A stretch of DNA of 64,000 nt, from contig OZ244960.1 in the NCBI GenBank assembly GCA_965222605.1, positions 1,696,001 to 1,760,000 on the forward strand, given 5' to 3'. Of the stretch, positions 33,822 through 40,597 are shown piece by piece; positions within the stretch are counted from its first letter, which is position 1, and each line of letters begins with the position of its first letter. Source of the stretch: Candidatus Latescibacterota bacterium. Lineage in GTDB: Bacteria; Latescibacterota; UBA2968. Position numbers and translations under genes: made by a program. A model generated the notes under the pieces. The model did not search any database, was not told where the DNA came from, and saw only the letters and a list, made by a program, of their open reading frames with translations.

Positions 33822-33906
33822 AGAGATCAACCACCTTACTTTTATTAATACTAAACAGTAGTATTTCAAAGGGTAAAATACATAGGGATGTGTTTCGGGT
33901 CAACGA

Positions 33907-33968
33907 AAAAGCCCCGCATTCAAATTCGGGGCAAAAAAAATGGGAACCGGGTCGCGGACCGGTTCCCA
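33907..33968 (-). terminator. Tandem intrinsic terminators downstream of phoU
   Basis: TGGGAACCGG-loop-CCGGTTCCCA + T8, then GCCCCG...CGGGGC + T4. Confidence 0.85.
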
Positions 33969-33989
33969 AGAGGGAGAATACGTCGTGCT
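33933..33989 (-). ncRNA. Candidate Pho-regulated small RNA (~57 nt)
   Basis: Pho-box-like array and TATTAT -10 upstream; ~20-nt unpaired 5' seed; strong terminator. Confidence 0.45.
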
Positions 33990-33995
33990 TTGGAT

Positions 33996-34051
33996 ATAAT
34001 ATCATTGCCGTGTTACAATCGCGTGTCGCTCGCGTGACAGTGTTCGCGACG
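33996..34051 (-). promoter_or_regulatory. Pho-box-like array and -10 downstream of phoU
   Basis: Minus-strand half-sites TGTCACG, CGACACG, TGTAACA at 11-bp period (34033, 34022, 34011), then 9 nt and TATTAT; shares CGTGTTACAAT with the pstS promoter. Confidence 0.6.
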
Positions 34052-40480: not shown

Positions 40481-40557
40481 TCAATCTCCCTTCTATCATG
40501 CGACTTGCACGACGTAGTGTTGTAGGGGTATAGGGTGCGAAAAATAAACCTGTATCG

Positions 40558-40597
40558 TGTTACAATAGTGTGACGAAAGCACGACATTCATGTGATA
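40558..40597 (-). promoter_or_regulatory. Pho-box array upstream of pstS
   Basis: Minus-strand half-sites TATCACA, TGTCGTG, CGTCACA, TGTAACA at exact 11-bp period (40591, 40580, 40569, 40558). Confidence 0.75.

Follow-up and report, generated by a model that had tools for sequence, protein, structure and literature searches.

What does the gap behind phoU encode in this Latescibacterota genome, and does it belong to the operon that ends there? The window, a 64,000-nt stretch of DNA (G000:C1:1696001-1760000), was taken from a genome of 6.34 Mb, assembled as a single contig and 98.68% complete, which we refer to as G000. On its minus strand lie pstS (40480-39512), a long pstC (39479-37242), pstA (37237-35597), pstB (35566-34754) and phoU (34745-34068; PF01895, E = 3.4e-48), the last gene of pstSCAB-phoU, with ppk1 on the plus strand, divergent from pstS. 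On the far side of the gap and on the same strand as the operon come a gene for a Zn-ribbon NUDIX protein (33869-33312) and then genes for an AAA ATPase and a VWA/CoxE protein. PstC is 745 aa long, with weak WD40/beta-propeller-like matches at about residues 231-414, ahead of the permease domain, and PstA is also long at 546 aa.

An earlier reading of the window, made from its letters alone (the sequence-only reading), had placed a Pho-driven small RNA (sRNA) in the gap, where the pst operon ends, and had suggested that it feeds back on pstS. The features that it listed are present, well beyond what chance would give. After comparing the gap across genomes of the phylum, we consider it probable that it holds a PhoB-dependent sRNA gene whose family is new and confined to a single family of Latescibacterota, with pstS as a lineage-dependent candidate target.

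Predicted promoter and terminators of the element

Immediately downstream of phoU, the minus strand carries a Pho-box array of three 11-bp units, each composed of a 7-nt half-site and a 4-nt spacer (34040-34008), oriented like the array at pstS. Three bases after the array begins an extended -10 element (34004-33996), consisting of TG-N and a hexamer (34001-33996) that starts 10 nt past the proximal 7-mer half-site, and a discriminator of 6-7 nt follows (33995-33989). The array at pstS, which served as our reference, has four phased units (40598-40555) and is likewise followed by a -10-like hexamer after 10 nt. In PhoB promoters the box array takes the place of the -35 element, is co-oriented with transcription and keeps a short, fixed distance to the -10, as in the E. 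coli spacing. Strict spacing is also stated in the excerpted text of one E. coli study (PMC10294691).

Both the second array of 11-bp-phased half-sites and an 11-mer that it shares with the pstS array (34009-34019 and 40556-40566) had been described in the sequence-only reading, and both are indeed there. The 11-mer has no other copy in the 6.34-Mb genome, and at each of its two sites it forms the promoter-proximal half-site. To rank the array, we used a PWM made from 25 distinct units in the pstS promoters of nine other genomes, with G000 and all sRNA promoters left out, and applied it to all possible sets of three phased units on the two strands of G000 (12.7 M positions). The pstS promoter took the first two ranks, in two registers; rank 3 went to a site upstream of an NYN-domain gene and rank 4 to the array at 34040, which is therefore the third-best locus genome-wide under a matrix drawn from relatives' pstS promoters only. 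From this rank and the geometry shared with pstS, we conclude that the array has the motif, orientation and spacing of the organism's own best Pho promoter. The candidate PhoB of G000 (2209155-2209847) is an OmpR-family regulator with receiver and winged-helix domains, encoded next to a HAMP-PAS-HisKA kinase; it gave the best match to TIGR02154, at 259.7 bits and under the equivalog cut-off of 296.2.

Several other sites came to light in the search for Pho boxes. The second-best array in G000 lies at ~2596307 (-), ~60 nt upstream of the gene for the NYN-domain protein (203 aa). The pstS promoters of G003, G006, G008, G009 and G015 (loci L034, L040, L036, L038 and L037) have half-sites 3 and 4 spaced by 9 bp instead of 11, the result of a 2-bp deletion and an unusual arrangement in a phased Pho array. 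Moderate Pho-box scores were obtained for a repeat family of near-identical copies in G000 (for example, at 2199384, 3341030 and 910414 on the plus strand and at 5178001 and 249256 on the minus strand); these copies probably represent mobile or repetitive DNA and not genuine Pho sites. Another repeat from the motif scan is at least ~70 nt long and has six or more near-identical copies (for example, at 1277754, 2737058 and 6101381 on the plus strand; 4048022, 4035422 and 1313562 on the minus strand).

The predicted transcription start (+1, at 33988) opens a 5' seed of 20 nt (33988-33969) that is unpaired in the minimum free energy (MFE) fold. Next comes hairpin 1, with a stem of 10 bp (33968-33941), which together with T8 (33940-33933) forms the putative intrinsic terminator of the predicted sRNA (33968-33933). 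The -10, the leader stretch and this 10-bp terminator with its T8 all lie on the minus strand exactly where the sequence-only reading had put them. Two features had escaped it: a second terminator, hairpin 2 with T5 (33932-33906), whose stem is kept between genera as its sequence varies, and a sigma-70-like promoter of the NUDIX-AAA-VWA genes (33903-33875), a conserved neighbour that lies outside the sRNA and abuts the U-run of hairpin 2. At hairpin 1 the MFE is -19.0 kcal/mol (z = -3.4), a value equalled by 0 of 200 shuffles.

A search against Rfam 15 returned no match at the gathering score, the best hit over the element reaching 16.8 bits against a threshold of 49.5 (E = 3.7). Neither Hfq (PF17209) nor ProQ (PF04352) was found in the 98.68%-complete genome. 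Among metatranscriptomes, 18 RNA runs contained 6-20% of the sampled words; contigs from four runs, belonging to four studies, were compared with the locus, and none of them spans 33839-33981. Contigs from these metatranscriptomes of relatives end at 33982 in two studies, and one contig ends at 33994. These ends are at most a weak hint, and could equally have arisen where assembly broke off in sequence that several strains have in common.

Conservation and covariation in three genera

A 551-nt query containing the end of phoU and the spacer behind it had a match in each of the 20 other genomes in the genus of the window (g1). We then built a covariance model from 22 sequences and ran it over 151 genomes of the phylum. 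It returned one full-length match per genome in G000, in all 19 of the other g1 genomes drawn, in the single genome of a second genus (g4) and in two of the three genomes of a third (g9). Three further genera of that family (0/6 genomes) and a second family, f2 (0/19), gave no match, and elsewhere in the 151 genomes there were just two weak matches, to the hairpins alone. Together with one g1 genome found outside the covariance search (G004), 24 genomes in three genera carry the element.

The alignment of the regions downstream of phoU, which the sequence-only reading had proposed as a check, bears out its view of the array and the seed. By our reading of the alignments by eye, the three half-sites and the -10 stand at unchanged distances in 21 of the 24 genomes; the 10-nt distance from the proximal half-site to the -10 is constant in 21/21 genomes with the array, and the TG-N is present in 18 of these 21. 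Sequence varies between genera in the 4-nt spacers, in the 10 nt before the -10 and in the 6-7-nt discriminator, and identity restarts exactly at the predicted +1 (33988). Nucleotides 1-18 of the seed are identical in 20/24 genomes across the three genera, with a single substitution in G008, and of the 20 other g1 genomes, 16 have an unchanged 5' end of the seed. A subclade of three genomes (G010, G016 and G018) has diverged in the distal half-sites and in nt 1-10, and retains the C/U-rich part of the seed, both hairpins and the NUDIX promoter.

In the hairpins, the sequence changes and the pairing is kept: 96.9% of alignment cells are paired, and 5 of the 19 pairs have changed on both sides, in 11 cells, a count reached by 0 of 500 shuffles. 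When the hairpin partners are slid by one column, pairing falls to 60-70%. Compensatory changes from A-U to G-C occur in hairpin 1 of G023 (g4) and of G119 and G122 (g9), and three of the four inner pairs of hairpin 2 (helix 4) are altered on both sides. The anatomy of the sequence, the geometry of the promoter and these conservation and covariation patterns are direct observations, and variable spacers, an invariant seed and covarying hairpins together are what one would expect from a promoter with its start site, an RNA segment that functions single-stranded and a terminator that depends on its structure.

The placement of the element right behind the pst operon, as first described, holds for most of g1. 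In four genomes other genes intervene: phoU and the element are ~1.9 kb apart in G001, ~3.1 kb apart in G018 and 4.2 kb apart on one contig in G122, and in G119 the element is preceded by two ORFs, of 305 and 146 aa, that match nothing in Pfam. Of these four loci, set apart from phoU by 2-4 kb of other genes, three (G001, G119 and G122) retain an intact array, -10 and seed. Since it stays intact where it is parted from phoU, the element is not simply a phoU 3'UTR and appears to travel as a module of promoter plus RNA.

These data bear on the chief rival to an sRNA gene, in which the element has no promoter of its own and is just the tail of the upstream operon, a 3'UTR with two terminators that perhaps yields a processed fragment, with the array as an inert or decoy PhoB site. 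Hairpin 1 is the only terminator after phoU in G000, and so doubles as that of the pst-phoU operon; most intragenic PhoB sites in E. coli are transcriptionally inert, according to the excerpts of PMC10294691; and in the G010/G016/G018 subclade the hairpins and the C/U-rich part persist next to an incomplete array. We nevertheless judge this explanation unlikely, because the promoter-like conservation (an invariant distance from array to -10 and identity that resumes at the expected +1) and the integrity of the module away from phoU both speak against it.

The neighbour on the other side is more constant than phoU. The NUDIX gene lies directly 3' of the element in 22 aligned loci and in G119 and G122 (Pfam-confirmed in G000, G001 and G119), which would suit a Pho promoter that drives a regulated leader of the NUDIX-AAA-VWA genes, with the hairpins acting as attenuators and phosphate induction occurring by read-through. 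Such a leader would have to pass two strong intrinsic terminators in tandem, for which we saw no alternative anti-terminator fold, and between hairpin 2 and the NUDIX gene there is already a near-consensus sigma-70 promoter, extremely conserved at all of the same loci. We regard this arrangement as quite improbable.

pstS and other candidate targets

The element of G000 was first connected to pstS through two blocks of complementarity, and both are present: a perfect 10-nt complement of sRNA nt 1-10 in the pstS 5' leader (40516-40507, minus strand), which is the candidate target site, and a complement in the SD region (40491-40485). A caveat raised at the time is upheld, since both RNAs carry the two blocks in the same order, which prevents one continuous duplex. 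The 10-mer itself occurs 10 times on both strands of the genome, where ~12 occurrences are expected, so its presence somewhere is unremarkable; what is special is its placement inside the ~60-nt pstS leader.

Conservation of this block differs sharply between genera. In g1 (a count that excludes G019), it is intact in 1 of 20 genomes, G000 itself, has one internal mismatch in G007 and is deleted or decayed in the remaining 18. It is kept with one G-U each in the g4 genome (G023) and in all three g9 genomes (G119, G122 and G089), where it lies 6-7 nt ahead of the ribosome-binding site in leaders that are otherwise different. Taken over 23 genomes that bear the sRNA, the block is intact in four and has one mismatch in one; in G089, a 90%-complete assembly, the block is present and the covariance model finds no sRNA. 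The three genomes examined from f2, the family without the sRNA, lack the block in their pstS leaders. Being kept in g4 and g9 and lost in most of g1, the block looks ancestral, selected in the former and dispensable in the latter. Its loss in g1, while the 5' end of the sRNA is invariant, implies that other partners must exist.

Two further observations concern pairing at pstS. In a ranking of duplex energies over 5090 gene-start regions, the pstS start region came 351st, and folds of the pstS leaders revealed no significant structure hiding the ribosome-binding site, so that an unmasking mechanism like that of the Bacillus sRNA PhoS is not indicated. The proposal of a Pho-driven sRNA that feeds back on pstS thus fares unevenly: the promoter geometry, the conservation from +1, the seed and the covarying terminator favour the sRNA, and the relatives' pstS leaders favour the feedback only in part, through g4 and g9. 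On present sequence comparisons, pstS would be at best one lineage-dependent target.

The shared block could also be read at the level of DNA, as an operator for another protein situated just 3' of both Pho promoters. The block is near-palindromic (of the ACG-N-CGT type), which gives the same duplex sequence at both loci, and it is retained in the pstS leaders of three genera. An operator does not fit the differing distances from block to promoter at the two loci, the invariance of all 18 nt of the RNA 5' end, well beyond a 7-8 bp core, or the loss of the pstS copy in most of g1 while the sRNA copy is kept, and we hold it to be very improbable. The weakest alternative, a plus-strand promoter in the A/T-rich -10 region that sends antisense transcription into phoU, draws on a 9/12 promoter-like match in a consensus scan (33991-34019), and it is barely credible given that its -35 lies within the discriminator, whose sequence differs from genus to genus, that its -10 is no more than the proximal half-site read in reverse and that the orientation of the half-sites fits minus-strand activation.

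We looked for other partners of the sRNA by scanning the seed for duplexes against 5090 crude gene-start regions of G000, with four full shuffles of the seed and three shuffles of its 5' half as controls. There was no enrichment of targets over shuffled seeds, with 165 regions at or below -20 kcal/mol versus 167-290 in the seven controls, and none of the candidates examined is conserved in all three genera. The sites at prs and EngA are retained only within g1. With the queries used, neither the 518-aa protein of unknown function nor the NYN-domain protein has an orthologue in g4 or g9, and the OpuAC-type protein belongs to a multi-copy family in which orthology is ambiguous. In the ribosome-binding region of the NYN-domain gene, 9 nt are complementary to the middle of the seed. 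The phoB leader does not pair with the sRNA (-11.6 kcal/mol), and within the pst operon there is no pairing site better than about -20 kcal/mol.

One lead from the scan lies outside mRNAs. The single 5S rRNA gene of G000 (3738998-3739114, from Rfam) has a seed-complementary site in its 3' part (3739089-3739110), at which 17 of the 20 seed nucleotides pair (-27.1 kcal/mol); on a 130-nt stretch, 4 of 2000 seed shuffles do equally well. The site is identical in G004, G001 and G023, and one uncompensated change in the 5S rRNA of g9 brings the duplex to -22.0 kcal/mol. The match was picked out post hoc, as rank 3 among the 5090 windows, and the site is base-paired within 5S rRNA. That the seed is invariant because its partner, the 3' part of 5S rRNA, is invariant, with the RNA binding nascent or free 5S, strikes us as far-fetched. 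If true, it would couple the Pho response directly to the making of ribosomes, into which more of the cell's phosphorus goes than into anything else.

The predicted sRNA and known Pho-linked RNAs

The element is likely to encode an independent base-pairing sRNA of ~56 nt, with a possible form of ~85 nt, under a phosphate-starvation promoter. PhoB binding, the start site, the transcript itself and every target are parts of a model that we infer from the genomes compared. In this model, phosphorylated PhoB would bind the three phased half-sites, which stand in for a -35, and RNA polymerase would initiate at or beside 33988. Hairpin 1 and its U8 would end the transcript at ~56 nt, and some transcripts may continue to the second hairpin, at ~85 nt. 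The first 18-20 nt, predicted to be unstructured, would act as the pairing seed: the 5' half may pair with the pstS-leader block where that is present, and the C/U-rich 3' half may pair with G-rich ribosome-binding sites.

This design has counterparts among described sRNAs. RyhB, MicL and DapZ are Hfq-dependent RNAs that represent sparing sRNAs dedicated to one regulator, or 3'-end sRNAs with internal promoters. The predicted RNA resembles them in linking one transcription factor to one short RNA, in its 5' seed and in a terminator shared with, or supplied to, the upstream gene. It differs from them in occurring in a genome where neither Hfq nor ProQ was found. The E. coli sRNA EsrL also was placed under PhoB control, at a different location unrelated to the pst operon; in the excerpts of PMC10294691, it is described as phosphate-induced and reportedly bound by PhoB, whereas ChIP-seq in K-12 detects no PhoB at esrL.

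The closest parallel is PhoS of Bacillus velezensis and B. subtilis, a 66-nt sRNA that is transcribed from its own promoter in the phoR 3'UTR, with Pho boxes and an extended -10, and that has a C-rich 5' seed of 17 nt with 100% conservation; phosphate scarcity induces it via PhoP, and it was shown experimentally to activate phoP translation (excerpts of PMC11522486). As far as these excerpts describe PhoS, it and the predicted RNA are alike in their shortness (66 versus ~56 nt), in having their own promoter with Pho boxes and an extended -10 behind the last gene of a Pho-system operon, and in combining a fully conserved, C-rich 5' seed of 17-18 nt with a Rho-independent terminator. They belong to different phyla, and the Latescibacterota element follows phoU (or unrelated ORFs), whereas PhoS follows phoR. 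The box is PhoB-like in one and that of Bacillus PhoP in the other, and PhoS activates phoP translation, whereas no complementarity to the phoB leader was found for the predicted Latescibacterota RNA. Because of the difference in location, we treat the element as an analogue of PhoS, comparable by design, rather than as a homologue or member of its family.

Among the titles and opening lines of abstracts returned by our literature searches, no report on Pho-linked sRNAs describes an sRNA behind phoU, and those from a full-text search for sRNAs in Latescibacterota do not deal with bacterial sRNAs. In the PhoS study it is stated, in the excerpts of PMC11522486, that nearly all known bacterial regulators of phosphorus metabolism are proteins. 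If real, the element would add an sRNA to a lineage in which searches found neither Hfq nor ProQ, and it would open the Pho regulon of an uncultured phylum to study through a defined box, spacing and RNA. It would also be a second, apparently unrelated case of a Pho-box sRNA behind a Pho operon, which suggests that this may be a recurrent solution.
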